This document shows positions 18,279 to 58,614 of a stretch of 64,000 bases of DNA, one piece after another. Origin of the DNA: a virus (lineage: Duplodnaviria > Heunggongvirae > Uroviricota > Caudoviricetes); the IMG/VR virus record IMGVR_UViG_3300028908_000001, positions 1 to 64,000 of that record; one strand, given 5' to 3'. A program made the position numbers and the translations under genes. The notes under the pieces were generated by a model. It worked only from the letters and a program-made list of their open reading frames with translations. It had not been told where the DNA came from and did no database searches. Each line of letters begins with the position of its first letter. The first letter of the stretch is position 1.

Positions 18279-18283
18279 TCGTG

Positions 18284-26293: not shown

Positions 26294-26297
26294 CGTC

Positions 26298-37429: not shown

Positions 37430-38608
37430 ATGTCTGTCACAATAATCTGGGGCGCCGATAGCGGCGCCGACATCAAACTCCCGTTTGCCGGGAACTGCGC
37501 CCTCGTCGGTACCCGCATAGTCGGTACCGGCAGCGGGGATGTGGCGCTCGCCTTCAATGAGTTCATACCCGATGAACATACTGTGGCGTTGTACCACATG
37601 AATGAAGCCGCATGGACGGGGGCGGAGGGGGAAGTGGTTGATAGCAGCGGGAATGGGTATCACGGGGCGGCTCGCAATGGGGCTACCACAACAAGTGGAT
37701 GGTTTGATCGTTGCGGAGAATTCGGTGACAGCCAGTACTGTAACGTACCTGCACTAGACGTTCTCATAGAGCCGCCGCTGACCACGGAGGTGTGGATATA
37801 TTGGCGCAGTCGAGGCCTCTATCTCCATCATGACATCGTGCGCAAACTATACAATATTCAGTGGGGCGTGCAAGATGTAGGGGAGGAGAATGGCAAGGTC
37901 TACTTGGATTTCTACAGCGATGTCGCACGGTACTCGTACCGTACGTCTGAGGCTATTATATCGCCAGAAACTTGGGGACATCTTGCAGTCGTAATAGCAG
38001 ATTACGAAGATGTCAGTTTGTATCTTAACGGTAATTCAGTGGACTTTGCCTTCCTTGGTGTTGCCTCTAATACATTTTATTATTCTCCACTGCGCATCAG
38101 CAGCGGTGAGTCTTGGGGAGGGTACTTGGATGAGTTGCGCATCAGCTCCACTGTCCGCTACACCTCCGACTTCAGCCCCCACCGCTACGAACCCGGAACA
38201 GTCACGGCGCGCTATCAGGTTGGTTCGCCCCAACGCATTACCGCCGTTGACTGGGGTGGCCTCCTGGGAGCGGACTACGGGGTGGTAACCAAAGTGGAGG
38301 TCAACACCACCAGTGGGTGGCGGGTTGTGGCCGAGGACCCAGCAGGTCTGACGCCGCCACTAACAAATCTCAGTTACATTACTGCCGGGCCGGATATTGT
38401 GAGAGTTACATTGGCACCAAGGGCTGATACACTGCAGAGTGAAACACCGGTGCTGGATTGGCTCAAAGTGGCATTCGAGCCTGTTGGACTGCCCCCGGCT
38501 CTGAGGGCTAGTTTGTTGCCACGGCGCTTGACAGCTTCTCTACAGCCCCGTAGACTAAAGGCAGAGCAAATAGGCAAACGCTTTATTGTCACATCGGCTG
38601 ACGAATAA
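37430..38608 (+). CDS. LamG/concanavalin-A-like lectin domain protein
   Basis: LamG-like pattern VALYHMNEAAWTGAEGEVVDSSGNGYHGAARNGATTTSGWFDRCGEFGDSQY...LYLNGNSV. Confidence 0.55.
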   Translation: MSVTIIWGADSGADIKLPFAGNCALVGTRIVGTGSGDVALAFNEFIPDEHTVALYHMNEAAWTGAEGEVVDSSGNGYHGAARNGATTTSGWFDRCGEFGDSQYCNVPALDVLIEPPLTTEVWIYWRSRGLYLHHDIVRKLYNIQWGVQDVGEENGKVYLDFYSDVARYSYRTSEAIISPETWGHLAVVIADYEDVSLYLNGNSVDFAFLGVASNTFYYSPLRISSGESWGGYLDELRISSTVRYTSDFSPHRYEPGTVTARYQVGSPQRITAVDWGGLLGADYGVVTKVEVNTTSGWRVVAEDPAGLTPPLTNLSYITAGPDIVRVTLAPRADTLQSETPVLDWLKVAFEPVGLPPALRASLLPRRLTASLQPRRLKAEQIGKRFIVTSADE

Positions 38609-40573: not shown

Positions 40574-41097
40574 AAGAAACCATGTTGGCGCGGGCTGTTG
40601 ACGTATTCAGGGAAGAGCTATTGCCCGCGCGGCTATATGATATTGCAGATGAGAAACTTGTGGCAGCCTACATGCTATCGTGTGGCCAACCCACGACAGT
40701 TATAGCGGAGACACTTGGTGTGCCCTTGGGGGCACTCCATGCATGGCTTGCCTATGACGAAGAAGTCCGCGAGGCCATTGATAGGTTTAATGAGGTCCGC
40801 GAACAGGAGATATACAGCCGCGTCCTTGACATACTGGCTTCCTTGCTGCAGCGCGATGATCTCACGCCGGAACAGCTTATGTCTGTGCTTGGTCTTGGCT
40901 TGCGTATGAAGCATGGCAGCGACACACGTTCGCAGACGCGGCGGCGCATCGAACTCAAAGAACAAGAGCTTGATTTGAGGATGGCTGCGCTGCAGAGTCA
41001 GCACAAGCCGAGTTTCGATTGGGTGATAGAATTGAAAGAACAATCCGACGGCGTATTTAGCGCAGATGTACCGCAGCAAGACACAGATGAGAATTGA
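40543..41097 (+). CDS. putative terminase small subunit
   Basis: 184 aa immediately upstream of and overlapping TerL; HTH-like TTVIAETLGVPLGALHAWL. Confidence 0.45.
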   Translation: MDEERAEQKVEETMLARAVDVFREELLPARLYDIADEKLVAAYMLSCGQPTTVIAETLGVPLGALHAWLAYDEEVREAIDRFNEVREQEIYSRVLDILASLLQRDDLTPEQLMSVLGLGLRMKHGSDTRSQTRRRIELKEQELDLRMAALQSQHKPSFDWVIELKEQSDGVFSADVPQQDTDEN

Positions 41098-42907
41098 AGG
41101 CCCACGCGGGCCTTTACTGCTTCCTCCAGTTTGGACCCCCGATAACTGGAAGGCACTAAATCCTCAACTGCAACGCTTCATTTACGACGCTTGCACGGAC
41201 TTCAAGTTCTTCCTCCACAACGTTTTTCTGCCGTTTCATAGTGAAGTAGAGGGAGAGCCGTGGCCCACGAAACTACCGTGGCACATAGAGCAGTTGTGTA
41301 ATGACCTGCAGGCCGCGATCCCCGATGCATTGGTGCCATTCAAGAAGAGCGATCCTTCGCGGCCCATAATGGTTTGGATACTCCCCACGGGGCATTTCAA
41401 ATCCTCTACAGCTTATGCCCTGTCTTTGTGGCTCATAGGTATCAACCGCAGCGTCTCCATCCTTTCTATCTCGGCTTCGGGTGAGACAGCGGAGCGCATG
41501 GTGTCGGCTGTCAAGTTGCATCTTACCCAAAATCAGCGGTTCATAGATATTTTTGGCCCCGCGCGGCTGGATGACACGGAAGGTCCGTGGCAGGCGCGCA
41601 AGTTCACAGTAGAGCGCCCCATCAGGCGACAATCTCCCACGATGTTCGCCGCCGGTGTTGAGACCGAGATTGAGGGCCATCGCTATGACATTGCGATAGC
41701 CGACGATGTTACTACTGGGCGCAACAGTAGCACGCCGGGCAACCGCACGGCAGTCAAAGAAACCATGACGAAGGTTGTCTGGCAGCGTCTGCATCCGTCG
41801 CGGCGCATACTTCTCGTCATCGGCACGATGCATCATTCCGATGATTACCTGGCGTGGCTGAAGCGGCGGGCCGAAAGCGGCGATTCGATGGTACAACTGC
41901 GGTTGTTTCCTGCTGTATTGAGGGGTAAGTGGCCGCCCGATAAGAAGGACAGGTCGAAGCCATATCGTTTGCCCAATGGCACATGGAATGTCGAATGGGA
42001 CCCCGAACTAGAGGTGTTGTGGCCCGAATTCTGGACGCCCGAGCGGCTGTTAGAGGATTGGCTACAGGACCCTGGGGCTTTTGCATTGACACGCTTGCAT
42101 ATCATACAAGCCCCCGAAGGGCAGTTGTTCCCATTGGAAGTGCTCCAACATAACTGCCGCGCCGATGGAAAGGTCAACAATATGGGAGTTGAGAAACCCG
42201 CGATTACTGCTTGGCATCCCGAATGGGGGCGGGCACGCAACGAAGCAATGACTGCGCAGCAGGGACTGCGACTGAAGCGCATTGTTTTGGCTATTGATCC
42301 GGCGGCCACCGCGCCCAGGCCAGGCAAGGACCCAGACTACACAGCAATAGAGTTGTGGGGACTTACAGAGGACAACCTGCGCGTGTTACTGTGGCTTGAC
42401 CGTTTTCGCACGGGCAACCCGACGGCGGCCCGCGAACGTATTGCAGAACCCATCCGCGCATTTGAACCTGACGAAGTAGTATACGAAGCTCTTTCGATGG
42501 ACCGCTACTTTGCGATTGATTTGGCCAAGGAGATCGGTATGCCCATCAAGACGCGGCCGCTGACTAAGACGAAGGCCGAGGAGTTGAATGCGCTGGCGGG
42601 CTTCGCTGGTTCGGGCATGATGTTGTATGCGTGGGGCGACGAGCGCAGCGCGACGATGATGTCTGTGTTTGAGGATGAGCTGGCTTCCTATCCAGGTGCA
42701 CACGATGATACGGTGACAGCCGCGCTTCATGCATTTGCGCTGTTTAAGCAGAAGCGCGGGCCAGAAGGTGGAGAAGCCAAAATCTTGACAAGCGATGATG
42801 AAACAGTTGAAAATGGTGAAAAGAAAACACCGCGGCGACCGGAAGATGCTCCGCGGCCGTTTAATCTACCGCCGCGGCCGCTCGCCGTACCGGGACGGTT
42901 CTGGTAA
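41066..42907 (+). CDS. terL: terminase large subunit
   Basis: ATPase Walker-A-like ILPTGHFKSS, Walker B IAIADD, C-terminal RNase-H-like nuclease region (LAIDPAATAP...). Confidence 0.85.
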   Translation: MYRSKTQMRIEGPRGPLLLPPVWTPDNWKALNPQLQRFIYDACTDFKFFLHNVFLPFHSEVEGEPWPTKLPWHIEQLCNDLQAAIPDALVPFKKSDPSRPIMVWILPTGHFKSSTAYALSLWLIGINRSVSILSISASGETAERMVSAVKLHLTQNQRFIDIFGPARLDDTEGPWQARKFTVERPIRRQSPTMFAAGVETEIEGHRYDIAIADDVTTGRNSSTPGNRTAVKETMTKVVWQRLHPSRRILLVIGTMHHSDDYLAWLKRRAESGDSMVQLRLFPAVLRGKWPPDKKDRSKPYRLPNGTWNVEWDPELEVLWPEFWTPERLLEDWLQDPGAFALTRLHIIQAPEGQLFPLEVLQHNCRADGKVNNMGVEKPAITAWHPEWGRARNEAMTAQQGLRLKRIVLAIDPAATAPRPGKDPDYTAIELWGLTEDNLRVLLWLDRFRTGNPTAARERIAEPIRAFEPDEVVYEALSMDRYFAIDLAKEIGMPIKTRPLTKTKAEELNALAGFAGSGMMLYAWGDERSATMMSVFEDELASYPGAHDDTVTAALHAFALFKQKRGPEGGEAKILTSDDETVENGEKKTPRRPEDAPRPFNLPPRPLAVPGRFW

Positions 42908-44731
42908 ATGGAACGCATTCTAAAGTTGCGGACTAAGGATGGCCAAGAGATCGAAGCCGTGGTCATTGAAGACCCGCGGCCAGAAGTAGATGCACGCCTC
43001 ATCAAGGGTGTAGACGATCCCCTCGCGCCTCATTTTGTCCTTGAGCGCTCTGCCTTCCGGAACAAAGAACGCTACATTGCGCTAGAAAGCCCACAGGTCA
43101 TTGCCAAGCAATACGATCCGTTCTTCCGTTCGTACAACATCACTGATGTTGCGGAGCCGCCGGTGCCGCCGGGCTATTATGTCGAGATATATCGCCGCTG
43201 TCCTACTACTCGCGCGGTGATAGACGCTCGCGTGGCGGCTGTCGTGGGCCTCGGATATGATATTCGCTATAAGCCAGAAGTGGCGTGGCAGGGTCAACAC
43301 ACCACTCTCAAGGAACCCGATACTGCCGCGCTGAACCGTCGCGAGAAAATTTTGCGGGCAATCGAGAATTGCGGGGCACTCCTGTCCTTCCAGGAACTGC
43401 TGGAAGCCGTTTGGCTTGATGTGGAGCTTACAGGCAATGGCTATATTGAGCTGACCCGCGATGGCGAAGGTGAAGTAGATGGTTTCCGACACTTGCGCAG
43501 TGTAGAGGCGCGCATATCGAAGGACTACCGCGTTATCTATCAGATCAAGAACTATCAACCAGTGCAGGCATTCGCCATCTATGGTACGGAAGCCACGCAT
43601 CTATTGGTAGAGCCTATTCGCCAGAAGGTTGGCCGCGGCCATCGAGAACTTTGGAAGGTCGTGGGCCTCCACAAGACTGTTTCTCCGGATGAAGTGGAGA
43701 AATGGGGCGAGGAAGGTAGGGAGATACGTCCCACGCACGAGATGTTACATTTGAAACATTATTCGCCCGCGGACAGCATTTATGGCGAGCCGCCCATTTT
43801 GTCGGCCGTCGAAGATTACCTTGGTGGTCTTTATGCGCGGCTGTTTAATATAAGCTACTTCAATGCTGCTACAGTTCCGCGCATGATGATCATCGTCAAG
43901 GGCGGCGAACTGAACCCCAATGTCGAGGCGGCCATCAAGAACTTCTTGCGCGAGCAGGAAGCAATGGAAGCTCTCAACCAGTGCCTGCTTGTCACGGTGC
44001 AAGAGGGCATGGACGTACAGATAGAGAAGCTCAGCAGCGAGCAGCTACGCGACGCTGGCTTCATTGAATATCGCGAACAGTGTGACGCTGGTATTCGCCG
44101 GGCTTACAGAGTGCCGCGAAGCTGGGTTGGCGAAGTCGAAGGCGGCGGCCGCCAACAGGTTACAGAAGTCAATCAAAAGTTCCTGCAGGCCGTTGTGCGC
44201 CCACACCAGGTTCGCCTCGAGTCGGCGTTCAACCGTGTTTTCCGTGAGCGCCTCGGCGTGGACGATTGGGTACTTGTTCTGCATCAGCACCAGGTCATGG
44301 ACCGCGAAGTCTTCGCGCGATGGGCGGAGACTCTGCGGCGCAATGGTATAGCTACCATCAACGAACTCCGTGCGGAGATAGGCTTGGCACCGATACCCGG
44401 TGGCGATATTGCACACATTATGCCGATGGGCATGGGTGTTGTACCTGTCCAGTACTTGGCGGCATTAGCACGGGCGCTGCAAGAAGGCCGCGGCGATACA
44501 TTGCAAATAGAGAATCCAGCCGAGGGCTTGAAGCCCATGGGACTTGCGTTCTTGGCTGAGCCGAGGTTCGAGAAGCAGGCGGCGGCTGCCAAGAATGAGT
44601 GGATTAGGTTCTTGGGTTGGTTGCAGGCCGCGGCCGACAGCGGCACACTCGATAACATAGTTTCGTTGGTATCACCAGAACCAACACGGGTGGATGTTTC
44701 CGATGAAGACGAACCATCCGATGCAGACTGA
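42908..44731 (+). CDS. portal protein
   Basis: 607 aa directly after TerL; position and size are canonical. Confidence 0.75.
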   Translation: MERILKLRTKDGQEIEAVVIEDPRPEVDARLIKGVDDPLAPHFVLERSAFRNKERYIALESPQVIAKQYDPFFRSYNITDVAEPPVPPGYYVEIYRRCPTTRAVIDARVAAVVGLGYDIRYKPEVAWQGQHTTLKEPDTAALNRREKILRAIENCGALLSFQELLEAVWLDVELTGNGYIELTRDGEGEVDGFRHLRSVEARISKDYRVIYQIKNYQPVQAFAIYGTEATHLLVEPIRQKVGRGHRELWKVVGLHKTVSPDEVEKWGEEGREIRPTHEMLHLKHYSPADSIYGEPPILSAVEDYLGGLYARLFNISYFNAATVPRMMIIVKGGELNPNVEAAIKNFLREQEAMEALNQCLLVTVQEGMDVQIEKLSSEQLRDAGFIEYREQCDAGIRRAYRVPRSWVGEVEGGGRQQVTEVNQKFLQAVVRPHQVRLESAFNRVFRERLGVDDWVLVLHQHQVMDREVFARWAETLRRNGIATINELRAEIGLAPIPGGDIAHIMPMGMGVVPVQYLAALARALQEGRGDTLQIENPAEGLKPMGLAFLAEPRFEKQAAAAKNEWIRFLGWLQAAADSGTLDNIVSLVSPEPTRVDVSDEDEPSDAD

Positions 44732-44983: not shown

Positions 44984-45193
44984 ATGCCATATCGTAGCAT
45001 CGCCGAGTTGCCACCGGCGTTTAAAAACTTTACGAAGAAACAGAAGCGGTGGGTCTTGCCCGTATTGAATGCGCTGCTGCGCATTTACGACGAAGGGAAG
45101 GCCATCAGGATCGCCATAGGATTGCTTAAGAAACACTTCGGGTTGAAGAAGGCCCGGCCGAAGGCCAAGCAGGCGACTGATGGCAATAAGTGA
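44984..45193 (+). CDS. hypothetical small basic protein
   Basis: Preceded by a TTGACA-N17/18-TAAGAT promoter-like element. Confidence 0.45.
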   Translation: MPYRSIAELPPAFKNFTKKQKRWVLPVLNALLRIYDEGKAIRIAIGLLKKHFGLKKARPKAKQATDGNK

Positions 45194-47297
45194 AAACTCG
45201 GTTCCACTGTTCTATGCGACAATTGACAAGGTTGCGGAAGAAGAGGACAAACTTGAGTTTGATGTTGTAGCTTCCACAGATGCGCTGGACAAGGATGGCG
45301 AGATAATCGACCCCGCGGCCATCCGCAAGATGAAATCTGTCCAGCGCGTTCCCTACTGCGTGGCTTCTGACCATCGCGAAGCGCGCATTAATCCTCTCAC
45401 ACAGGTCGGTTGGGCATATCCCATCCCTGATACTCCCGACAATGTTTTCAAGGCTCATGTTGAGTTATGGGCCGACTATCCTCGCGCCAAGGAATACTGG
45501 CTGGTACTTCGCAAAACGTGGCAAGAGCAGAAGGTAAGCATCGGCGGCGAACTTGCGAAGCCGAAGACGGTTGAGTGGAAAGATGGTCGCCGCGTGCGGC
45601 GTATTCATGACATCGATCTTGACCACATTTTGGCTGTGCGTGGCTCGGCGGCTGCCAATCCGGAGACCGCCGTCGAGCTTGACATGCGGAAGGCCCTTTT
45701 CAAGACAGCAGACGAGCTTTATGGCGAGGATGAAGCCGATAAAGAGTGGCACGGTATGAGTGCTGAGACTATCCGTGACAAGATAATAGAACAGATGCTT
45801 CAGAAGTTCCCAGCGGCCAAGAACGCTTGGATCGAAGAGTTATACGAGAATGGCGCTGTCGTGGAAGTGAATACAGGTGATGGAGCTTACTCGTACTACT
45901 GGGTGTCGTATAGCGTCAGTGCTGATGGCGAGGCAAACATTTCGGAACCCGTTCAGGTTCGAAGGGCTTGGCGAGATGAGCATGGCAATTTGATAGCGGG
46001 CGAGAAGACGGTGGCATTAATCGACCGTGCGCGTGGCGAGGGCCAAGGCGTTGGTGGCCCGCGCCAAGGTGACGGCGGCACCGATACATGTGTCTGCCCC
46101 AATTGTGGCTACGAGATGCCGCACGAGCGCGGCACCCCATGTAACGAACTAACATGTCCAGAATGTGGTACAGCAATGGTCGGCAAATCGGAGGCCGAGG
46201 ACATGTGGGACGAATTGGACGAAGCACAAGAGCTTCTTGATGAAGGCAAGGAGTTTGTACCGTTCGATGACGAACTTGAAAAGGCAGCGGCTAATGTTTC
46301 GCTGAAGCCGTGGCGGAAGACTGGCTATGCCAAGAAGCTACCCGCTTCGTGCTTCCTGTACGTGCCCGATCCGAAGAAGCGTTCGACGTGGAAGTTTCCT
46401 GTGTTTGAGGGCGAGGATATGGACCCGAAGACAGGCCGCTATCGCAAGCGCGGCAAGTTGAACTGGAATGCGCTAAGGAATGCGGCCGCGCGGCTGGCGG
46501 CCATCATCAACCGCATCAAGCAGGGCCGCGGCTTTAAGAGTATGAGCCTCGCTGAGGCCCGCAAGATGGTAGCAGTCGTCAAGAAAAAGATAGCAGCCTT
46601 GTACAGGCGCATAGGGAAACCATTACCGGATGTGCTAAAAAAGACCACCGAAGTGGGTGACGAACGCATGAGCGTTGTCCAGCAACTTCTCAAAGTTGTA
46701 AGCGATCTCTTGGGCAAGGATGGCGTCGAAGCAGAGGACGCCATCGAGGAAGCCGCCGAGGCTATTGAAGAAGAGGCCGCGACCACCGAAGAGGCCGAGA
46801 ATACCGAGGCGGCTGCCGAAGAGGAAGTCCAAGAAGAGAAGACCGAAGACAAGGCGTCTGACGACATTGACGCCCGTTTCAAGGCTCTGGAGGAACAGAT
46901 TGCCGCGCTGCGCCAGGTTGTCGAGCAGATGGCTTCGGAAGAGAAGACCGAAGACGCTGCCGAGGAAGACAAGACCGAAGAGGCCGTTGAAGAGGCTTCC
47001 GAGGAAACCGCGGACGAGGCCGAAAGTGAGACTAGTGACGAGCCAGCGGCCGATGATGAGGCCGAGAAGGCTGATGACACGGCGGCCATCGCTGCGGCTC
47101 TTCGCGAAGCGCTGCAGCCGATTGTCGAGCGCATCGAAGGCTTGGAAGAGTCGGTCAAGAAGGTGGCCAAGGCGCGCGGCATTTCTCTCCAGGTCGATAA
47201 GGCCGAGCCGCAGGCTGACGATGCCGAAGAGGAAGATGGTTCACTGATGGCATTCGAGCTGGCCCTACGGCAGTTTACCGGCCGCGATAGCAGCTAG
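45180..47297 (+). CDS. prohead protease (HK97-gp4-like) fused to an acidic coiled-coil scaffold-like region
   Basis: The N-terminal ~180 aa fit the prohead-protease fold. An embedded zinc ribbon CVCPNCGYEMPHERGTPCNELTCPECG is followed by an E/A/K-rich repetitive tail. Confidence 0.7.
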   Translation: MAISENSVPLFYATIDKVAEEEDKLEFDVVASTDALDKDGEIIDPAAIRKMKSVQRVPYCVASDHREARINPLTQVGWAYPIPDTPDNVFKAHVELWADYPRAKEYWLVLRKTWQEQKVSIGGELAKPKTVEWKDGRRVRRIHDIDLDHILAVRGSAAANPETAVELDMRKALFKTADELYGEDEADKEWHGMSAETIRDKIIEQMLQKFPAAKNAWIEELYENGAVVEVNTGDGAYSYYWVSYSVSADGEANISEPVQVRRAWRDEHGNLIAGEKTVALIDRARGEGQGVGGPRQGDGGTDTCVCPNCGYEMPHERGTPCNELTCPECGTAMVGKSEAEDMWDELDEAQELLDEGKEFVPFDDELEKAAANVSLKPWRKTGYAKKLPASCFLYVPDPKKRSTWKFPVFEGEDMDPKTGRYRKRGKLNWNALRNAAARLAAIINRIKQGRGFKSMSLAEARKMVAVVKKKIAALYRRIGKPLPDVLKKTTEVGDERMSVVQQLLKVVSDLLGKDGVEAEDAIEEAAEAIEEEAATTEEAENTEAAAEEEVQEEKTEDKASDDIDARFKALEEQIAALRQVVEQMASEEKTEDAAEEDKTEEAVEEASEETADEAESETSDEPAADDEAEKADDTAAIAAALREALQPIVERIEGLEESVKKVAKARGISLQVDKAEPQADDAEEEDGSLMAFELALRQFTGRDSS

Positions 47298-47321: not shown

Positions 47322-48338
47322 ATGATAATGCCGAGTGTTGACAAGGCCACCACTGGCATCACCAATGTTGGCACGCAGGGCAGGCTGAACCCTGCACAAA
47401 TGCGGGAGTTTATCCGCAAGGCGCGTGACCAGCAAGTTATGATTAAGATCGCCCAAGCGCTTCGCGCTGAGGGCGGCAAAGTAATGTGGTCCACCATCGA
47501 CTATGACGAGCCGGTTACCGTCTGGGACAAGTACGGAAGCTCTTGGCCCAGCTACGGTACCACCAGCCCGTCGTTCAGCGGCCAGACGCTTTCCACGCAT
47601 AGCGTCGAGGCTAAGGTCGAGCTGGACAAGGTGGTTCTGCCGCATTGGAATATTGAGCGCGAGGGCATCGAGACCACCATTGTTGACCAGCTTGCCAAGG
47701 CTTTCGGCAATGACCTTGAGCGCGCAGCCATCCTCGCCGATAGCGATGGCACTGACCCGTACAGCGGTGACACTGGCGAAGGTATGCTGACGGCGTTCGA
47801 TGGTTGGTATGAGACCATCCGCACCAGCGGTACAACCTATGACCATGCTGGCGAGAAGGTCAATGCCACGCTGTTCTATGAGATGTGGGAAGCCCTGCCG
47901 CTGAAGTACCGCACGAACCGCAAGGACTATCGGTTCTTTGTGGCACCGGATGTGGCTTCGGCTTGGACTCGCTATCTGGCTTCTGTTGGCCACGCGGCTA
48001 CTTCCGAAGGCTGGGTGGCGAACACGGAGGACGGGCTGGTTCAGTATGCCGCGGGCATTCAGCTTGTTGAAGTGCCCAAGATACCGGTGAATCGCCCTGG
48101 CGTGCTGAGCCAATCTGCTGTGACGACCGGCCAGTATAGCTTCGTTATCCTCACTCGCCCCGAGAACCTTGTGGTTGCATTCGACCCTGAGCTGCAGTGG
48201 GAAGTTGGCGTCGAGTCGGACATCCGCCGCAAGGTTGTGTGGGTGAAGTGTGGGTTTGTGGCTGGCTTGCTGAACCCCGAGGATGCGGTTGTTGGCGTGA
48301 ACGTCTTGCCGCAGCCTGACACCAGCGTGTCTGCCTAG
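47322..48338 (+). CDS. major capsid protein (HK97-fold)
   Basis: 338 aa directly after the protease-scaffold gene, followed by a strong GC hairpin. Confidence 0.8.
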   Translation: MIMPSVDKATTGITNVGTQGRLNPAQMREFIRKARDQQVMIKIAQALRAEGGKVMWSTIDYDEPVTVWDKYGSSWPSYGTTSPSFSGQTLSTHSVEAKVELDKVVLPHWNIEREGIETTIVDQLAKAFGNDLERAAILADSDGTDPYSGDTGEGMLTAFDGWYETIRTSGTTYDHAGEKVNATLFYEMWEALPLKYRTNRKDYRFFVAPDVASAWTRYLASVGHAATSEGWVANTEDGLVQYAAGIQLVEVPKIPVNRPGVLSQSAVTTGQYSFVILTRPENLVVAFDPELQWEVGVESDIRRKVVWVKCGFVAGLLNPEDAVVGVNVLPQPDTSVSA

Positions 48339-48358
48339 TAGTGCAGGTTCGGGCACTG

Positions 48359-48391
48359 GGGAGGCGGGGGCCATAAGGCACCCCGCCTCCC
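48359..48391 (+). terminator. GC-rich hairpin after the major capsid gene (up to 14-bp stem, ATAA loop), no U-tract
   Basis: gggaggcgggggcc-ataa-ggcaccccgcctccc; U-tract-less terminator candidate. Confidence 0.4.
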
Positions 48392-48419
48392 AAACAATCT
48401 AATATAGGAGGACAGAAGA

Positions 48420-48893
48420 ATGCCGTGGTTTATTATCAACAAGCAGGTAGTAGATAGCAAGGTTGGTAGCCGCCGGTTGCGCTTGAAGGGACCTTCGGGG
48501 CAGGCTTATATCTTCGAGGTTGGCAAACCCCTAGAAGTTACCGATCCGCAAGACGCTGCCTATTTTGCTGACCCTGCCAATATTTCCATCCCCACGCCGT
48601 ATGGGGTGTCAATCCCGCAGATTATCGAGTGGGAACCGGAAGGTCCCGAAGGCGAAGCGGTAGCGGCGGCTGTCAATGAGTCAGAACGCTTGCGTGAAGA
48701 GGTTGACTCGCTCAAGTCGGAACTTGCGGAGTTGAAGCAGCTTTTAGTGCAAGCTCTTTCGCAAGATGGCCCCGCGAAGAAGTCGAGTTCCAGCCGCTCA
48801 CGGCGCGGCGGTACTCGCTCGGCAAAGGACACCGGCTCCGCCTCGAAAAAGGAATCTGGACAAGAGTCGGATACCGCGACGCAATCTACTTGA
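48420..48893 (+). CDS. head-associated protein with a Ser/Thr-rich C-terminal tail
   Basis: AGGAGG SD; coiled-coil segment followed by KKSSSSRSRRGGTRSAKDTGSASKKESGQESDTATQST. Confidence 0.6.
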   Translation: MPWFIINKQVVDSKVGSRRLRLKGPSGQAYIFEVGKPLEVTDPQDAAYFADPANISIPTPYGVSIPQIIEWEPEGPEGEAVAAAVNESERLREEVDSLKSELAELKQLLVQALSQDGPAKKSSSSRSRRGGTRSAKDTGSASKKESGQESDTATQST

Positions 48894-49825
48894 TGCAGCA
48901 GGGGCACTTGCTTCTGAAGATGCGGCCCGCCGCGCGTTTCGTTAGTGGCCGCGGCGGGCTGCTATCCCTTGCTGAGTTCCAAGAACAACGGGCTGCGTTC
49001 CTCTGGTGGCCGCTTCCAGCCGAAGACTTGCCACACGTATTGACTATAATACGCAGCGGCGGCTTGGGTGACATCTTGCTCATGCGCCCAGCCATTAGAG
49101 CACTTAAGAAAGCGCGGCCCGATATGACCATCCGCGTCGTCACGGATTGGCCCGAGCTTGCCAATGGCGATGTGAATGACAGCCGCGCGGCTTTCTTTGA
49201 AGGAGAACCGGTGTTGTTTCTCAATGAATGGGTGGAATGGGCACCGCGGCGCTTCGATTTGCACCGCTCGGATATTTTCGCCCGCGGCATGGGACTAATG
49301 GAGTGCCAAGATTATTCCTTCGATGGTGAAGTGCAGATAGACGCCCCGCGGCTGATAGAAGAAGATTACATTGCTCTGCAATATATGGGGTCGAACAAGT
49401 TCCGCTGTCCTTCGGTGGCATGGATGAATGAATTGGCCCTGCGGTTGCCGCTGCCGACGGTGGCTATCGGGGACCGGCCTGTGGCTGCCGAGACTACATA
49501 TAACTTTATCCCATGTGACAAGGAGCGGTTGTTTTCCATTGTGCGCCACGCGCGGCTCGTGATAGCTGGCGACAGCGGCCCGTTTCATCTGGCCCGCGCG
49601 ATGGGCGTACCCTGCATTGGGTTGTACGGCCCGTATCCTGCCGACCTGCGCGTTCGTGACACGTGGCCGACGTGTCGTGTTATCGAGAGCAGATACCCGA
49701 AAGAGAACGCCTGTGGCCCTTGCCAAGAAGCGGGCTATTGTGATAGGCTTGAGAAGGCAGAATGTTTGGATGCCATAGATATTGACGAGGTGCTATCTAT
49801 AGCCCACGAATTGCTTGGTGAATGA
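48893..49825 (+). CDS. glycosyltransferase family 9 (ADP-heptose heptosyltransferase-like)
   Basis: IIRSGGLGDILLMRPAIRALKKARPDMTI and VIAGDSGPFHLARAMGVPCIGLYGP (GT9 hallmark). A TTG at 48890 is an alternative start. Confidence 0.8.
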   Translation: MQQGHLLLKMRPAARFVSGRGGLLSLAEFQEQRAAFLWWPLPAEDLPHVLTIIRSGGLGDILLMRPAIRALKKARPDMTIRVVTDWPELANGDVNDSRAAFFEGEPVLFLNEWVEWAPRRFDLHRSDIFARGMGLMECQDYSFDGEVQIDAPRLIEEDYIALQYMGSNKFRCPSVAWMNELALRLPLPTVAIGDRPVAAETTYNFIPCDKERLFSIVRHARLVIAGDSGPFHLARAMGVPCIGLYGPYPADLRVRDTWPTCRVIESRYPKENACGPCQEAGYCDRLEKAECLDAIDIDEVLSIAHELLGE

Positions 49826-50579
49826 CATGCCGACGGCTGTTATCGAAAAAGCGTGGGATGACTTAATAGAAGAGAACTACGCGACGGCCTCCGACGTGGA
49901 AACGCTGCTCACGGGCATACTGACGGACATCACGGATAGCGATCCCCTTTCGCAGGTGCTTTCCTCGACTGAGCGCACTACATTGATAGCGAGTTATTTG
50001 GATGCCGCGGGCGACGAAGTGCGGAGGCTTGCTGGCCGCGATTTTGGTTACCACGAAGACAAATGGGTGTATGTGGACAGCAGCGGCGTCAACTATATTG
50101 ACTTGGGCAACCGGGGCTTCTGGCCGCTCGTCGAAGTTTCTGATGCTTACTACGTCGATATTTATTCCTCGACGCGCATTACCGATCTTGACGAGTTGCT
50201 TGTCTTCCCCAGCGGGCTAATAGCATGGAAGGGAACAGCAAACTTTGCCAAGGCGGTACATGGCATTAAGCTGAAGATAACATGGGGTTGGGAAGACCCA
50301 CCGGATGAGATTGTGCGGGCGCAGGCGATGTTGGCCGCCGCGCGGCTACTCGAATACATCACTTCCACCAAGAACGTAGACGGCATCGGCGGCGTCCAGG
50401 TCATACAATATGGCGAGATGCAGATACGTCAGTACCAGCAGGGGCGCTTTTGGCAAACCATCAAGTCGTGGCGCGAGCAAGCCGAGAAGATTTGCAAGTC
50501 GTATCGTGGTGTCAAGCTACAGGCCATGCGCGTCTACGATAAGAAAAACTATGGCGAGAGGATACAAGCGTTGCGATGA
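49815..50579 (+). CDS. putative head-tail connector/adaptor protein
   Basis: Position in the head-neck module; 254 aa. Confidence 0.5.
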   Translation: MVNDMPTAVIEKAWDDLIEENYATASDVETLLTGILTDITDSDPLSQVLSSTERTTLIASYLDAAGDEVRRLAGRDFGYHEDKWVYVDSSGVNYIDLGNRGFWPLVEVSDAYYVDIYSSTRITDLDELLVFPSGLIAWKGTANFAKAVHGIKLKITWGWEDPPDEIVRAQAMLAAARLLEYITSTKNVDGIGGVQVIQYGEMQIRQYQQGRFWQTIKSWREQAEKICKSYRGVKLQAMRVYDKKNYGERIQALR

Positions 50580-52216: not shown

Positions 52217-53182
52217 ATGGGCCTGCAACCAGGTCTGGCGAAACACGCCGCGGTAGGCATCGGCATACAGTCGGACTTTGACACTCCCAATACTTCGGTA
52301 ACGTGGTTGCCGTTCACAGACACATTCGACTTCAACCGCGAAGAGAACGTTGAGGTTCTCGAAGTCGGGGGCGAACTCTCCGATTGGCAGTATCTTACAT
52401 GGTCACCTGGTACACACTTCACTGGCACCATCGCGTTTGCATTGCAGCCCGGTGTTGTCGGGACGCTCTTCCAGTGGGTTCTCGACCGTGACAGTTATAA
52501 TCAGCCCACGTTTGCCACGATTGCAAAGTATGACCCCAAGGAAGGCGTTATCACGGTACAGGATGTGTTGGCGGCCACGGCGGCTCTCACCCTTGACAAG
52601 GGAGCTATAGTCACAATGTCCGTGACGGCCCACGGCCGCAAGGAAGCTGCCACGTCCGCGGCGGCTCCCACATCCAGTGATGTCGTGCGCGGGCTACCAT
52701 ATCTTGTCAAGGAATGCGTACTGCAGGTAGATACTGGCAGCGGTTATACCACCAACGAGACGTTCGAGAACTTAACCATCAACATCGACAACTTGGCAGA
52801 AGACCCTGCTGAGGGCCGCCGGATTGCCGAGGCGGATTACCCGCTGACTATGTACACCACCGGCGGCATGCGTGTAACTGGCACTATCACGCGCGACTAT
52901 ATAGACGACACGTTTGCATCCATTGTAGAAGATCAGCGCAATAACTGGACAGAGAGCACGCCATACAGTTCGCGGATTGCGATTAAGGTGACGGCCACGC
53001 GCGGCAGCAATTCATTGGTAATTGAATTGCCGTATGTGCAATTCACGAGCCGCCGAGTGGATTTGCCTGCTAACACTAATGATCGCTTGCAAGAGGTGTT
53101 GGAGTTCTCGGCCATGACAGACAGCACCGGCACCACGGCCCCGCTGTCGGTGACCATTGACGGCACAACGGTGTATCCGTAG
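52217..53182 (+). CDS. major tail (tube) protein
   Basis: 321 aa, T/S/G-rich beta-type sequence upstream of the chaperones and tape-measure protein. Confidence 0.65.
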   Translation: MGLQPGLAKHAAVGIGIQSDFDTPNTSVTWLPFTDTFDFNREENVEVLEVGGELSDWQYLTWSPGTHFTGTIAFALQPGVVGTLFQWVLDRDSYNQPTFATIAKYDPKEGVITVQDVLAATAALTLDKGAIVTMSVTAHGRKEAATSAAAPTSSDVVRGLPYLVKECVLQVDTGSGYTTNETFENLTINIDNLAEDPAEGRRIAEADYPLTMYTTGGMRVTGTITRDYIDDTFASIVEDQRNNWTESTPYSSRIAIKVTATRGSNSLVIELPYVQFTSRRVDLPANTNDRLQEVLEFSAMTDSTGTTAPLSVTIDGTTVYP

Positions 53183-55020: not shown

Positions 55021-58000
55021 ATGCGACATCAATTTGAGTGGGAAGTCAAAGCCCATATTGATGCGCAGACAAAGAAGTTATTTGAGTTGCTGGCTGCCCC
55101 GCGGAAGCGAGCTGTGGCATTGCGTGGCGAGAGACTTGGTGTTGGTGCTGAAGATGTAACGCGCTGGGCGAAGCGGGCTGAAGAGTTCCGCAAGCGCATG
55201 GAAGCCGCGAATGCGCAAGCCGCCAAGATGCAGAAGGAAATGGAGCGGCTGGCGGGTAAAAGCGATGAGGTGGCGAAGGCGCAGCGCAAGATATTGGAAG
55301 AGGAGATGGCGGCCGCGCGGGCTTCCGCCGAGCATTGGCGGCGGCGCATGAAACAAGCGCGTGATGTCACGCGCATGTACGAACAGCAGTATCGCTTGGT
55401 GCAGCAGCAACGGCGCGAAGAAGCGCGACTTCAGCGCGCGCAAGCCCGCCGCGCGGCCGAAGAGCAGAAGGCACAAGCGCAGCGAATGCGACAGATAGAG
55501 CAACAAGCCCGCGCTGAGGCGCGTTGGCGACGGCAGCAAATGCGCTACGCCCAGATGTGGGAGCGCCATGCGGAACGGGTCCGCCGCCAAGAGGAACGTG
55601 CCGAGCGGGAGCGCCTGCGGCGTCAGCGCGAGACAGCACGTGCTGCCGTCTACGTGCGGCCGCTGGCTGGGGCAGTGTTGGGTGAGCGGCTAACAGCCCG
55701 CGCTGAAGCTGCTTATCAGGGCCGCATATCTCTCTTGCGTCACTTGTACGGCAGGGCACGGGCCGACAGGGAAGGGGCGGCATATTGGATGAGGCAAGCT
55801 GCCGCGGTCCGAGGCAGCCTGTGGCGCTATCGCGGGGCAATCGCTATCGGCCGCGGTGTGACAGCAGCGCAAGAATTGTTGGGCATCGGGCCTTCGGCCG
55901 CAGCTTATGCCGCAGCCCAGCGCGCGTTGGCCGATGTAACGAAGCGGCGCGTAGCTTGGGAGAAGACATTGACACAGGCTCAGCGTGAAGGCAACCGTGA
56001 GCAGATGCGTGCCGCCGCGGCCACCGTGCGCTTCTATCGTGCCCGCGAACGTGTGCTGCGGCAGATCGTCAGGGAAACTCGCGCATTGCGTAACGCGCGC
56101 ACGCTATGGGGACACATGTCGCGGGCATGGATGTGGGCCACGCGGCAATTATTGCGTGTCAATAACGTATTCGGCCGCACAATAGCCATCTGGAATACGC
56201 TCACCTTGCCAATGCAGCGGTTCTATTGGACGCTGACTTCTATCTTTTATATGATCAACAACTTAGTGCGCCCCATCCGACAACTCGAATATGCCCTATG
56301 GAATTTAGCCCGCCGGATGATGGGAGAAGTTCGCCGCGGCTTCGCGGCACTCATCAACGAGATAGCTGAACTACAAGAAAAGTCAATGCAGTTGTATGCG
56401 ATGTATGGTGCCCGCGGTTTGGGAATGTTCGGTCAAGCCCTGCGCTTCACCATCGGGCGGCCATACACCACCCAAGAGATCATGGGTGCGTATAGGATGA
56501 TATACGCCCAGAACCTACAGCGTTTGATGGCCCCCGAACAGATTATCTCGATGGCCGCGCCGTTAGCCGCCGTTTACCGCGACAAACTCCAAGGGGGCGT
56601 GGAAAGCGTCGTTTACGGTATTGGTCGCGCCGTTCATGGCGACTGGCGCATTCTGCGTCGCCTCGGCATCACTCGTCAAGGCGTTGAAGAGCGCTATGGC
56701 ATTAAAACCCGCGGCCTCAAGACCGAAGAGGAGCGCAATAAACTCTTGCAGGCTATTCTCACGGAGATCAAGCTCCGCTTCGGCGGCGTTGAAAAAATGA
56801 TGAGCAACACATGGAACCAAGTCCTACGCGATTTCTCGGACATCAAGACATTGTTCGCTTGGGTGTATGGTCACACTCCAGGAAATGTCTTCGGTATGTT
56901 GCTGGGAGCATTAACAAAAATACGAGACGTATTGCTCACTTGGTCTAAGGAAGGCTGGTTCGCATACTTTGCACAGAAGTTGAGTGAGTTGACTGTGTGG
57001 CTACAGCCGCTGCTGGACTGGGTGGCGGGGCACATGGATGAGCTACGTACGATAGCCGCGGCCATACTCGATTGGGTCAAAAGTGGTATCAATGCTTTAC
57101 TTAAAGCATTCACTGGATTTGACATGGAGGACATAAAACGTTTGCAGGCAGAATACATTAAGCGCGGGCTACCAAAACAACTAGCCAATCAGATGATAGC
57201 CAACCAGATTTTGCAGAGTTTGCTTGACAAGATATACGAATGGGCACCGCGTGTGCTGGAACTACTTGGTGCAATGCTTAAGCTGCAGAGAGCCGCCGTG
57301 GCTGTTGCATTGTTCGTGGCCAAGGCTGTGGCTGGGTTGGTAGATTTCTTCACGCACCAAAAACCTGGGACCACAGCTCGGACGAAGACAATGGGGCAGA
57401 CCCTAGGTGATTGGGCAGCCTATGCCGAGCAGGCTTTCACGGCGGCACAGCAGTTCTTGGAAGCTTGGAAGAAGCAATTTGAAGCGAGTCCTTATGCTGG
57501 CCCGCGCGGTCATACCTACTCGCCAGCGCAGCGCATTAAGGGACTAATGCCGCCGCGGCCATACTACGATCCAAATACAAAACAAACCTATTGGTACTAT
57601 TATGATGCCAATGGCCGCGTGCGATGGTATCCACATCCGCCCAAGATGCGCCACTATCAGAGCGGTGGCTATGTCGAACAGACTGGCCCAGCCGTCGTAC
57701 ACCGCGGCGAAATGGTGCTGCCAGCAGACAAAGTGAAGAAGCTGTGGAACTTACTGACGGCCGCCGATGCCTGGGGGCACTTCTCAAGGGTGTTCCGCGC
57801 TGGCGGCGGCCTCGTTTCGGCGTTTGCGCCTATGGTTGGGTTGCCTGCATATGGTCTCGGTCTGGTGGGTTCTGCGGCTTCTTGGTGGCGCGGCCGACAG
57901 GCAGCACATTATGCGAAGAGCACAGGTCTCGAAGCGGTCATGCGCTATTATAGTCGCGGCGCTGCTCTGATGAATATGCGCGCCCCGTGGTATAAGAAGC

Positions 58001-58614
58001 GCGGTTTCTGGACTGCGCTGTCTCTGCTGGGTGACTTTTTTGCCACGCGCGGCGGCCTGCTTCTGGGCGGCAGTCTATTACGTGGTGGCACACTTGCGGA
58101 GCGCTTGCTTGCTTGGGGGGGCCAAGGAGAACACATATATACGACGATCCGCGATGTAGCAACGGGTGAAGAGATATTGGCTGCCATTCCGCGGACGGCC
58201 CCAGCATGGCTGCGTGGTTTGCGCTGGGCAGCCCGCGGCGCTGGTGCTGCCTTGGGGCGCATGGGTGGTTTGGGTGGCGCGATGCAGTGGGCGGGCAGGT
58301 TTATGATGCCGTCGTGGAAGTCTTGGTTGTCGCAGTGGCAGTGGCTAAAGTTGTTGGGCTACACAGCGGTGAGGACCAATGCACCCACGCGATTGTATGA
58401 GTGGTGGACCGACTTGCAGCGTCGCCGCGCGGCACTTCGTGAGTACATGCAGAAACCACTTGCGCCCACATCTAACCGCTATGGTGCTGCCCCTATCATC
58501 AATGTGGGGCCTATCTATGTGAGTGCCGACGTGGCCACTAACCCCGAACAGGTACGTAAGATATGGCTTGCTATTGTGTCGCAGTCGAGGATGCAGGCAG
58601 CCGCACGTGTTTAG
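55021..58614 (+). CDS. tape measure protein
   Basis: 1197 aa, highly alpha-helical, R/Q/A/W-rich, in the canonical position. Confidence 0.85.
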   Translation: MRHQFEWEVKAHIDAQTKKLFELLAAPRKRAVALRGERLGVGAEDVTRWAKRAEEFRKRMEAANAQAAKMQKEMERLAGKSDEVAKAQRKILEEEMAAARASAEHWRRRMKQARDVTRMYEQQYRLVQQQRREEARLQRAQARRAAEEQKAQAQRMRQIEQQARAEARWRRQQMRYAQMWERHAERVRRQEERAERERLRRQRETARAAVYVRPLAGAVLGERLTARAEAAYQGRISLLRHLYGRARADREGAAYWMRQAAAVRGSLWRYRGAIAIGRGVTAAQELLGIGPSAAAYAAAQRALADVTKRRVAWEKTLTQAQREGNREQMRAAAATVRFYRARERVLRQIVRETRALRNARTLWGHMSRAWMWATRQLLRVNNVFGRTIAIWNTLTLPMQRFYWTLTSIFYMINNLVRPIRQLEYALWNLARRMMGEVRRGFAALINEIAELQEKSMQLYAMYGARGLGMFGQALRFTIGRPYTTQEIMGAYRMIYAQNLQRLMAPEQIISMAAPLAAVYRDKLQGGVESVVYGIGRAVHGDWRILRRLGITRQGVEERYGIKTRGLKTEEERNKLLQAILTEIKLRFGGVEKMMSNTWNQVLRDFSDIKTLFAWVYGHTPGNVFGMLLGALTKIRDVLLTWSKEGWFAYFAQKLSELTVWLQPLLDWVAGHMDELRTIAAAILDWVKSGINALLKAFTGFDMEDIKRLQAEYIKRGLPKQLANQMIANQILQSLLDKIYEWAPRVLELLGAMLKLQRAAVAVALFVAKAVAGLVDFFTHQKPGTTARTKTMGQTLGDWAAYAEQAFTAAQQFLEAWKKQFEASPYAGPRGHTYSPAQRIKGLMPPRPYYDPNTKQTYWYYYDANGRVRWYPHPPKMRHYQSGGYVEQTGPAVVHRGEMVLPADKVKKLWNLLTAADAWGHFSRVFRAGGGLVSAFAPMVGLPAYGLGLVGSAASWWRGRQAAHYAKSTGLEAVMRYYSRGAALMNMRAPWYKKRGFWTALSLLGDFFATRGGLLLGGSLLRGGTLAERLLAWGGQGEHIYTTIRDVATGEEILAAIPRTAPAWLRGLRWAARGAGAALGRMGGLGGAMQWAGRFMMPSWKSWLSQWQWLKLLGYTAVRTNAPTRLYEWWTDLQRRRAALREYMQKPLAPTSNRYGAAPIINVGPIYVSADVATNPEQVRKIWLAIVSQSRMQAAARV

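Follow-up and report, generated by a model that had tools for sequence, protein, structure and literature searches.

Why does a tailed phage carry a glycosyltransferase gene in the middle of its head operon, and what would the enzyme act on? The window analyzed here, a 64,000-nucleotide stretch of a Caudoviricetes genome (IMG/VR record IMGVR_UViG_3300028908_000001), encodes a GT9-fold protein among its head genes (Table 1). The initial annotation took this protein for an ADP-heptose-dependent heptosyltransferase and a candidate for virion glycosylation, with the tail of the preceding head protein as a plausible acceptor. The reading that we favor, with about even confidence, is that the GT9 of this uncultured phage clade acts late as a glycosyltransferase that is directed to head assembly and has a virion protein as its substrate. 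Its observed part comprises the fold, the conservation of catalytic-type residues, the layout of the operon, the synteny, and a module shared with a head protein; from these we infer the activity, the sugar, the protein acceptor, and the timing.

Table 1. Coordinates of the features discussed, given as positions in the window
Feature	Position	Strand	Description
HldC/RfaE-domain-II-like nucleotidyltransferase, 147 aa	12080..12523	-	PF01467 59.6 bits; cytidylyltransferase fold
Major capsid protein (MCP), 338 aa	47322..48338	+	PF05065 30.9 bits; phrog_1623 E 2.5e-42
GC-rich stem-loop, no T-run	48359..48391	+	Gap between MCP and small-protein genes
Small head-module protein, 157 aa	48420..48893	+	N-terminal beta-type module, coiled-coil segment, basic tail
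GT9-fold glycosyltransferase gene	48893..49825	+	310 aa from ATG 48893; alternative TTG at 48890
Head-tail adaptor, 254 aa	49815..50579	+	phrog_442 E 1.6e-10

A conserved slot in the head operon

The location of a GT9-like gene within the capsid module was confirmed. The MCP gene and the gene for the 157-aa S/T-tailed protein lie upstream, the head-tail adaptor gene lies downstream, and both immediate neighbors are overlapped: the GT9 start codon shares one base with the TGA of the small-protein gene (TGATG), and the adaptor start codon is 11 bases ahead of the GT9 stop codon. The translated ORF (48890/48893 to 49825) contains the motifs GGLGDILLMRPAIRAL and AGDSGPFHLARAMGVPCIGLYGP. In such an arrangement, the gene would be transcribed late together with the head genes, and its translation would be coupled to that of the small head protein. 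RNA folding of the stretch between the MCP and small-protein genes (48339 to 48419) gave −40.6 kcal/mol (z = −5.3), and none of 200 shuffled sequences was as stable. Intrinsic-terminator prediction did not call the hairpin, and ahead of the ATG at 48420 lies AGGAGG, a strong ribosome-binding site. As modeled, the hairpin is probably an attenuator or mRNA stabilizer that sets high MCP expression apart from that of the downstream genes.

The gene order MCP, small protein, GT9, and adaptor was found in approximately 10 phage lineages, whose GT9 proteins share 23 to 46% identity. When the count was limited to loci with the flanking genes on the contig, GT9 lay between the MCP/small protein and the adaptor in the window and in L001, L004, L008, L009, L012, L013, L016, and L034/L035. 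MCP orthologues occur upstream of GT9 in all related loci. Small-protein orthologues (HMM scores of 110 to 151 bits) are immediately 5′ of GT9 in L001, L004, L008, L009, L012, and L013, and in L016 this slot gave only a weak match (16 bits). Adaptor orthologues scoring 110 to 359 bits were identified directly 3′ of GT9 in L033, L035, and L036, and genes for proteins of 251 to 265 aa come after it in L001 and L004. In L031, GT9 is directly 3′ of the MCP gene, with neither a small protein nor an adaptor detected. All family members above 250 bits with enough sequence context adjoin head-module genes. Because the slot has been kept across approximately 10 diverged lineages, GT9 is supported as a fixed gene of the head operon and not a moron.

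This conservation bears on a rival explanation, which we consider unlikely, that the enzyme works on the host envelope, either the LPS core or a different surface glycan. A receptor change late in infection would then limit superinfection or the re-adsorption of progeny to debris, and in a lysogen would amount to lysogenic conversion, the alternative named in the initial annotation. The window genome carries an integrase gene, so lysogeny is possible, and late expression would be compatible with a cellular target. Conversion is normally encoded by morons that sit at module borders and have a patchy distribution, whereas this gene appears translationally coupled inside the head operon in a slot retained at the identities given above, which argues against lysogenic conversion. 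It is a further point against an envelope target that no member of the GT9 family was identified when 185,579 representative genomes of bacteria and archaea were scanned twice; the scans returned only distant GT9s (21 to 43% identity over the best segment) in MAGs of Omnitrophota, Planctomycetota, Melainabacteria, and Oligoflexia.

A tblastn search of 50,697 sequenced phages using the GT9 also gave no match, and a metagenome scan added a single new lineage (L034/L035), the remaining loci being generic GT9s of 48 to 221 bits. The phages that carry the gene form an uncultured clade with siphovirus-type tail genes, and its two long contigs are 81 and 94 kb. No tRNA genes were found in the 64-kb window, and the window phage is unlikely to be an actinophage. 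A separate lineage (L029/L030) carries, between MCP-like and SU10-type adaptor genes, a cluster of tandem GT9, a 257-aa protein, a GT2/GT7C-like transferase, and an NAD-dependent sugar epimerase, and constitutes an independent analogue of the window arrangement.

Fold and catalytic-type residues of the GT9 product

The assignment to GT9, with its hallmark motifs, was upheld. PF01075 matched the product at 35.2 bits (cutoff, 22), a match confined to residues 215 to 249, and an AlphaFold2 model (pLDDT, 87) backs the full GT9 fold, a two-lobed GT-B architecture whose nearest solved structures are GT9 proteins. The family profile aligned across both lobes with 3TOV, WaaF, and WaaC, all among its best matches (81 bits each for 3TOV and WaaF). 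The key positions of the window protein are D60, G166/S167, R171, the D227-S-G-P-F-H232 motif, and the cysteines C261, C274, C277, and C291. An alignment of 23 family members, 20 to 47% identical to the window protein, revealed as invariant R54, G57, G59, D60, E115, R125, F129, R171, D227, G229, H232, G246, R253, C277, and C291, with C261 and C274 nearly so. Profile alignment to WaaC paired D60 with D13, R171 with K192, and D227/H232 with D261/H266, and WaaC T187/T188 were also matched by conserved positions; in all 23 sequences, the K192 position is occupied by Arg. WaaC D13 is the equivalent of the catalytic base D110 of TibC (PMC4358343). Judged from these residues, the window GT9 is apparently a catalytically competent, inverting GT-B enzyme.

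A GT9 fold could also have been recruited for a head role other than sugar transfer, serving to decorate or cement the head or acting like a chaperone, with a sugar nucleotide or no ligand bound, in the way that the chloroplast NDH complex uses the GT9-like subunit PnsB1 structurally. We regard this as quite improbable. The catalytic-base Asp, the phosphate-binding position, and the D-S-G-x-x-H motif are all invariant in the alignment; catalytic-type residues that persist at such divergence are expected of an enzyme and not of a purely structural protein, and without catalysis, or nucleotide-sugar binding at the least, they would be difficult to account for. Additionally, the coupling of the gene behind the small protein and the post-MCP hairpin suggest low rather than stoichiometric expression.

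Transfer of a sugar by the GT9 product is the preferred reading. As to which sugar, the annotated heptosyltransferase function agrees with the fold and the catalytic-type residues, and on the fold and conserved motifs only, ADP-heptose is most likely the donor. GT9 enzymes of known substrate are mostly LPS core heptosyltransferases, a point that, together with the best profile matches to 3TOV, WaaF, and WaaC, counts for an envelope target. The window protein shares Pfam family and fold with WaaC, WaaF, WaaQ, and the uncharacterized Veillonella GT9 3TOV. However, it scored 35.9, 27.8, and 35.7 bits against the NCBIfam equivalogs for LPS heptosyltransferases I, II, and III (WaaC, WaaF, and WaaQ), approximately 5-fold under the respective cutoffs of 185.3, 134.6, and 170.2, and this counts against the envelope. 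It also differs from these enzymes in the Arg in place of Lys192 and in its Cys4 cluster, and lies in a phage head operon, whereas theirs is the cellular LPS core operon.

Candidate acceptors and a shared N-terminal module

The 157-aa protein ends in PAKKSSSSRSRRGGTRSAKDTGSASKKESGQESDTATQST, within a 42-residue basic tail rich in S, T, K, and R (pI 10.2). This tail holds the most S/T-rich 40-residue stretch (16/40) among 68 window proteins, and the initial annotation saw in it a plausible O-glycosylation acceptor. Comparison with relatives spoke against that role. The tail is not conserved, as the orthologues have short acidic tails, one long acidic tail, or a zinc-finger-like end; L019 encodes the small protein without any GT9; and similar basic S/T/K/R tails are found on positional analogues in the cultured phages Agrobacterium JP1 and Pseudomonas FBPa45, both devoid of GT9. 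The JP1 protein was compared as a possible homologue of the small protein, and at an E value of 0.06 to 0.12 the match was not significant, leaving it a positional analogue only. An "AG-x-S/T-x-D/E" pattern considered as an acceptor site in small-protein tails was dropped, since the window, L013, and L016 do not have it. Searches of the small-protein family against solved structures and Pfam returned nothing significant, only weak coiled-coil noise. A candidate alternative acceptor, on composition, is the S/T-rich stretch of MCP residues 57 to 96 (S+T, 15/40).

The small protein is connected with the enzyme in another way. In most GT9 relatives, the N-terminal domain has a 28-residue module in common with the small head protein. 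Hhalign comparison of the small-protein N terminus with the GT9 N-domains gave a probability of 91.8% (E value, 7e−7) and a score of 43, against a maximum of 14.2 over 100 column shuffles, and cross-HMM matches agreed. The N-domain of the relatives is approximately 110 residues long and predicted to be beta-rich, with low pLDDT (30 to 60) in the P0006 model; the window GT9 has lost the module and retains an N-terminal remainder of 48 residues, which counts against the favored explanation. Judging from its sequence, the module would dock GT9 to the partner of the small protein, or to the small protein itself. Homology to a head protein is a further point against an envelope target.

Under the favored explanation, the N-terminal module of the relatives would dock the enzyme to its head partner, and, while the capsid assembles or shortly thereafter, a sugar would be moved from an NDP-sugar to Ser/Thr on a head protein. 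The candidate acceptors would be the adjacent 157-aa coiled-coil protein and exposed S/T-rich loops of the MCP, and the outcome would be a glycosylated virion surface. The donor, most likely ADP-heptose, could come from the host and perhaps be topped up by the phage HldC-like nucleotidyltransferase.

Sugar donor, known systems, and significance

The initial annotation also credited the phage with an ADP-heptose-forming enzyme, of which the HldC-like fold was retained and the product became less certain. The best NCBIfam model for the nucleotidyltransferase was rfaE_dom_II (TIGR02199), at 91.6 bits below its cutoff of 181.5, followed by TagD (41.6 bits). Its nearest solved structure was 5x9q (E value, 1e−12), deposited as a "putative cytidylyltransferase," which we take to be Burkholderia HldC. 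The protein carries the HxGH motif as PHAGH, and at the site of the RSTT motif it has GDITA, reading FMTGDITAS, a segment that is not conserved in homologues P0181 to P0184. The motif (F/L)xxGRSTT is characteristic of those heptose nucleotidyltransferases whose products include CDP- and UDP-heptose besides ADP-heptose (PMC11573728). The gene lies 36 kb from GT9, in an arm whose other genes include those for DNA methylase, helicase, and integrase. In favor of a link, one homologue, P0182 (52% identical), lies two genes away from a different GT9, in L026-L028. An exact-8-mer scan of viral contigs for close relatives of the nucleotidyltransferase, a weak test, failed to bring up the related phage contigs with GT9. 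A Pfam scan of 56 window proteins identified no GmhA, GmhB, or HldA-type gene and no second glycosyltransferase. From sequence, it is possible that the nucleotidyltransferase supplies an NDP-sugar donor to GT9, and within the window genome the link between the two is weak. The fuller version of the favored explanation, in which a phage-only GT9 clade, targeted to the capsid by a module copied from its head neighbor, O-heptosylates the virion with ADP-heptose made partly by the phage HldC-like enzyme, is put forward as tentative.

The same enzyme pair could instead glycosylate phage DNA, with GT9 adding NDP-heptose from the nucleotidyltransferase to a hypermodified base near packaging; this we hold to be very unlikely. 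Phage clusters that pair a cytidylyltransferase with a GT-B enzyme add mono- or di-heptose to 5-hydroxymethylcytosine (bioRxiv 10.1101/2023.12.21.572611), and nucleotidyltransferase, GT-B fold, and heptose chemistry would be common to both systems. The genomic surroundings also fit. The nucleotidyltransferase gene adjoins a Dam-type methylase gene, with the helicase and a second DNA methylase in the same arm, and the 10 kb past the left end of the window holds only another DNA methylase and replication genes; the L026-L028 homologue is found among methyltransferases, a PAPS-reductase-family gene, and the GT9; and the C termini of the small protein are basic or zinc-finger-like in some lineages. 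However, the DNA glycosyltransferases of that work are similar to T4 beta-GT, BshA, and MshA and not to GT9, belong to DNA-modification clusters, and depend on an enzyme that forms 5hmC. No thymidylate-synthase-like hydroxymethylase and no TET/5mYOX-type domain were detected in the Pfam scan of 56 window proteins, which, with many ORFs still lacking an assignment, is not exhaustive. GT9 is acidic by composition (pI 5.2), and a role in DNA glycosylation leaves its head-operon location unexplained.

For modification of a virion protein, a precedent in chemistry is the heptosyltransferase TibC, which O-heptosylates proteins (PMC4358343). TibC grouped with GT9 enzymes in our structural comparison. 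By sequence, the window family falls outside the BAHT group (TibC, AAH): its profile matched TibC chains at E values of 0.16 to 0.24 and is nearer to WaaF and 3TOV. The four cysteines of the window GT9 lie at a place comparable to the C-lobe iron finger of TibC (C339, C342, C358, and C370; PMC4358343), although the spacing, compared by sequence alone, differs (C-x12-C-x2-C-x13-C versus C-x2-C-x15-C-x11-C). [quoted passage not shown]

To our knowledge, virion glycosylation by phage enzymes has so far been documented for a few actinophages, where it alters antibody recognition. In mycobacteriophages Che8 and Rita, phage glycosyltransferases are proposed or shown to glycosylate the capsid, forming a glycan shield (Freeman et al. 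2023, in PMC11256854). Their genes, in the account given there, are near the 3′ end of the genome (PMC11256854), whereas the window enzyme is a GT9, known here from genes alone, and its gene is inside the head operon. A conserved head-operon glycosyltransferase in an unrelated, uncultured clade would make capsid glycosylation more widespread and would extend it to GT9/heptose chemistry, otherwise a matter of LPS cores and the TibC/AAH autotransporter modifiers. If true, capsid heptosylation would be seen here for the first time, as would a GT9 with a virus particle as its target. The system is small, with one enzyme and two or three candidates for its acceptor. The presence of NDP-heptose biosynthetic enzymes in viruses still awaits an explanation (PMC11573728). 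The pair of GT9 and nucleotidyltransferase would offer a concrete role for them, a physiological one for the heptose nucleotidyltransferases recently noted in viruses, and phage particles may receive a sugar coat by a so far undescribed route.

Fold, motifs, and family membership of the GT9-like protein

The initial annotation described a GT9 glycosyltransferase gene directly after a head protein with a Ser/Thr-rich tail, and the sequence does contain the tail and the two GT9 motifs that it quoted. The Pfam match of the 310-amino-acid GT9-like product passes the threshold yet covers only 35 residues, and NCBIfam heptosyltransferase models scored 28 to 36 bits against cut-offs of 135 to 185. 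Much firmer evidence came from the fold: an AlphaFold2 model generated from 25 homologues (pLDDT, 87.3) returned only GT9 structures as top Foldseek matches (Veillonella 3TOV, TibC, WaaC, and WaaF), with non-GT9 GT-B folds all scoring ≤11.1. When 1.84 billion representative proteins were searched with a profile, a tight GT9 family emerged. Across an alignment of 23 sequences, 20 to 47% identical to the window protein, R54, G57, G59, D60, E115, R125, F129, R171, D227, G229, H232, G246, R253, C277, and C291 were invariant, and C261 and C274 nearly so. Profile alignment paired D60 with D13 of the lipopolysaccharide (LPS) core heptosyltransferase WaaC, G166/S167 with T187/T188, R171 with K192, and D227/H232 with D261/H266; WaaC D13 is treated as the equivalent of the catalytic base D110 of TibC (PMC4358343). 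Since conserved columns align with catalytic-type positions of WaaC, the protein, judged by sequence, carries the residues that an active GT9 enzyme would be expected to have.

By fold and motifs the window protein is a GT9 member; its donor sugar we infer. It is not an equivalog of WaaC, WaaF, or WaaQ, nor by sequence a member of the bacterial autotransporter heptosyltransferases, although TibC, from that group, is its best structural match. Also recalling TibC are a conserved Cys4 cluster in the region of its iron finger, though with a different spacing, and, in relatives of the window GT9, an extra N-terminal domain.

Coordinates of features in the window
Feature	Coordinates	Strand	Family match
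SPFH/Band-7 protein, left arm	4305-5201		SPFH/Band-7
DNA methyltransferase, left arm	5616-6503	-	
761-aa protein with N-terminal HTH domains, left arm	9236-11521		MarR/TrmB
Nucleotidyltransferase, 147 aa	12080-12523	-	HldC/RfaE domain II-like
DNA methyltransferase, left arm	12578-13486	-	
AAA+ protein, left arm	16884-18332		ChlI/ComM-like
Radical-SAM protein, early/middle region	26172-27266		
ASCH-domain protein	30840-31454		ASCH
Radical-SAM protein, early/middle region	33058-34011		
Concanavalin-like lectin domain protein	37430-38608		Laminin_G_3
Large terminase	41066-42907	+	
Portal	42908-44731	+	PF04860
705-aa head protein, zinc ribbon and long acidic tail	45180-47297	+	
Major capsid protein (MCP)	47322-48338	+	PF05065, phrog_1623
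Small protein, 157 aa	48420-48893	+	
GT9-like gene	48893-49825	+	
Head-tail adaptor	49815-50579	+	phrog_442
Tail-tube-like protein	52217-53182	+	phrog_290
1197-aa ORF, putative tape-measure gene by position	55021-58614	+	

A conserved slot in the head operon

The window belongs to a phage genome on a 93.9-kb contig, and its tailed-phage structural module spans ∼41 to ∼63 kb of the + strand. The GT9 ATG overlaps the TGA of the small-protein gene (TGATG), and the adaptor gene starts 11 bases upstream of the GT9 stop. Downstream of the MCP gene is a strong GC-rich hairpin lacking a T-run (−40.6 kcal/mol; z, −5.3), and a good AGGAGG site precedes the small-protein gene. Given these overlaps, the hairpin, and the AGGAGG site, the small-protein, GT9, and adaptor genes were read as a single translationally coupled late unit after the MCP. 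A purely structural role for the GT9 protein, conceivable from the PnsB1 precedent, is quite improbable, as its catalytic-type residues are conserved and its coupled expression is probably low.

The 705-aa protein, from its position probably a protease/scaffold fusion, matched no family in Pfam or PHROG; its central part carries a double C-x2-C zinc ribbon (CPNCGYEMPHERGTPCNELTCPECG), and its C-terminal region is long, acidic, and rich in E, A, and T. Its orthologue in contig L016 has additional C-x2-C pairs. A Laminin_G_3 protein is encoded ∼2.5 kb upstream of the terminase, and in contig L031 a 1092-aa Laminin_G_3/Ig protein lies directly downstream of GT9; both are possibly carbohydrate-binding virion proteins.

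Relatives of the GT9 protein at 23 to 46% identity occupy the same head module. The order MCP, small protein, GT9, and adaptor was present wherever those flanks fell on the contig, namely, in L001 to L003, L004 to L007, L008, L009 (GT9 split into two ORFs), L012, L013, L016, and L034/L035; in L031, GT9 directly follows the MCP, and the small protein and adaptor were not detected. All family members scoring >250 bits with sufficient flanking DNA were in this slot, and the family was not found among 50,697 sequenced phages or in 185,579 species represented by one genome apiece. This context, the decisive new observation of the analysis, is the pattern expected of a product acting on or with the assembling head and not that expected of a lysogenic-conversion moron.

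In a different phage lineage, L029 and L030 (L029:648-9620; L030:4393-11388) carry a larger head-module sugar cassette, bounded by an MCP-like gene on one side and an SU10-type adaptor gene on the other. It encodes a 599-aa tandem GT9, a protein of 257 aa, a GT2/GT7C-like transferase, and an NAD-dependent sugar epimerase; the MCP-like gene is followed by an inserted HNH gene. The gene right after the distantly related MCP of myovirus-like contig L018 (6894-7661) encodes a 255-aa protein in which, read by eye, a zinc ribbon seems to precede a class I SAM-methyltransferase domain; the post-MCP slot may thus hold a modifying enzyme here too. In the representative library, the GT9 relatives that come next in closeness include tandem-GT9 and GT9-GT2 fusions of 650 to 1300 aa, and 4 of 10 scanned (P0047, P0049, P0053, and P0058) are interrupted by inteins that carry LAGLIDADG or HNH homing endonucleases. 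Inteins are unusual in glycosyltransferases, and a viral or otherwise mobile origin of these relatives is suspected.

Most GT9 family members have 355 to 430 aa, including an ∼110-residue N-terminal domain, predicted with low confidence to be beta-rich, that is largely lost from the window GT9. Within this domain, a 28-residue module (Y.F..GeW..V.n..Dl.yL) shares homology with the module at the N terminus of the small protein (Y.F..GeP..V.d.eD.e.L). Alignment of the two by hhalign gave a probability of 91.8% (E value, 7e−7; score, 43), compared with a top score of 14.2 from 100 column shuffles and 8.6 for a reversed control, and reciprocal HMM matches support the shared module. Because the module is common to both, the GT9 protein may dock to the small protein's partner or to the small protein itself. 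Modification of the envelope or LPS, for which GT9 enzymes provide precedent, is unlikely: the position in the operon is conserved, equivalog scores are very low, the N-terminal module resembles a head protein, and the family is absent from the cellular genomes searched.

Candidate acceptor and donor

The small-protein tail proposed initially is a plausible acceptor. This tail (residues 116 to 157; pI 10.2; 38% S+T) contains the most S/T-rich 40-residue stretch among 68 window proteins (16/40), closely followed by an MCP segment (15/40). However, small-protein orthologues share the N-terminal module and coiled coil and not the tail: those of L008 and L012 end in a short acidic tail, that of L013 in a long one, and those of L004 (7375-7992) and L034 (459-1076) in a C-x2-C...H-x3-H zinc-finger-like motif, with only the L001 orthologue having a shorter S/G/R-rich segment. 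In L019, a distant relative by MCP, the adaptor comes directly after a weak small-protein match (16.6 bits), and GT9 is absent. Among cultured phages, those whose MCPs are nearest (∼25% identity), Agrobacterium JP1 and Pseudomonas FBPa45, also lack GT9 and encode in the same slot a small protein whose acidic stretch precedes a basic S/T/K/R tail; homology of these proteins to the window small protein was not significant. Basic tails in the post-MCP slot therefore require no glycosyltransferase, and the acceptor proposal is not supported. The zinc-finger-like end of the L004/L034 subclade and the basic tail in the window hint at nucleic acid binding by the small-protein C terminus.

The nucleotidyltransferase, proposed to supply the donor sugar, has a cytidylyltransferase fold. 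Its closest NCBIfam model is rfaE domain II (91.6 bits; cut-off, 181.5), and its best solved relative is chain 5x9q (E value, 1e−12), which we take to be Burkholderia HldC. The HxGH motif is present, and (F/L)xxGRSTT, a hallmark of heptose nucleotidyltransferases also making CDP- and UDP-heptose (PMC11573728), is missing. The gene lies 36 kb from GT9, adjoining a Dam-type methylase, and no other heptose-pathway genes were found in the window or 10 kb past its left end. A protein 52% identical to it (P0182) is encoded two genes away from a distant GT9 with an N-terminal zinc ribbon, in a cluster (L026:17-6546; also L027 and L028) of GT2, two Methyltransf_24 genes, the HldC-like nucleotidyltransferase, an unknown gene, a PAPS-reductase-family gene, GT9, and an N6/N4 DNA methylase, which could be a glycan or DNA modification cluster. 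This proximity counts in favor of a functional link between nucleotidyltransferase and GT9; within the window genome, with a subthreshold score and a 36-kb separation, the link is weak. Viruses do encode NDP-heptose enzymes of unknown role (PMC11573728). Heptosylation of DNA has a real precedent, in which a cytidylyltransferase and a GT-B enzyme make heptosyl-5hmC (bioRxiv 10.1101/2023.12.21.572611), but those enzymes are T4 beta-GT-like, the window GT9 is acidic (pI 5.2), and no 5hmC-forming enzyme was seen, though many ORFs lack an assignment; we regard it as highly unlikely.

The left arm, on the minus strand, carries DNA methylases, a helicase, an integrase, and the nucleotidyltransferase; another DNA methylase, a sliding clamp, a primase-helicase, and RecA lie just past the window's left end. 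The three left-arm methyltransferases (the third at L114:12243-13703) comprise two of N6_N4 and one of Dam/D12 type. An abrupt GC-skew switch (−0.22 to +0.46) at ∼24000 marks the divergent junction between minus- and plus-strand gene arms. Of the two radical-SAM proteins, one has a SPASM domain and the other is a weak match under the Pfam threshold.

Relation to known glycosylation systems

The closest functional precedent is mycobacteriophage virion glycosylation, in which the glycosyltransferase genes lie near the genome 3′ end, unlike the window GT9 in its head operon (PMC11256854). Literature searches turned up no account of a phage GT9 encoded in a head operon, nor of heptosylated capsids. 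Phage GT9 genes as such are already in databases, since BFVD holds uncharacterized uncultured-phage proteins labeled "RfaF" and "Aah/TibC." The initial observation is confirmed, and its interpretation is partly supported: which protein accepts the sugar, which sugar it is, and what the nucleotidyltransferase does are hypotheses. What is solid and new is that a GT9 family restricted to phages is fixed in the head assembly operon and has a module in common with the neighboring head protein, a finding that relates to two known kinds of system, glycosylation of phage virions and protein glycosylation by GT9 enzymes.
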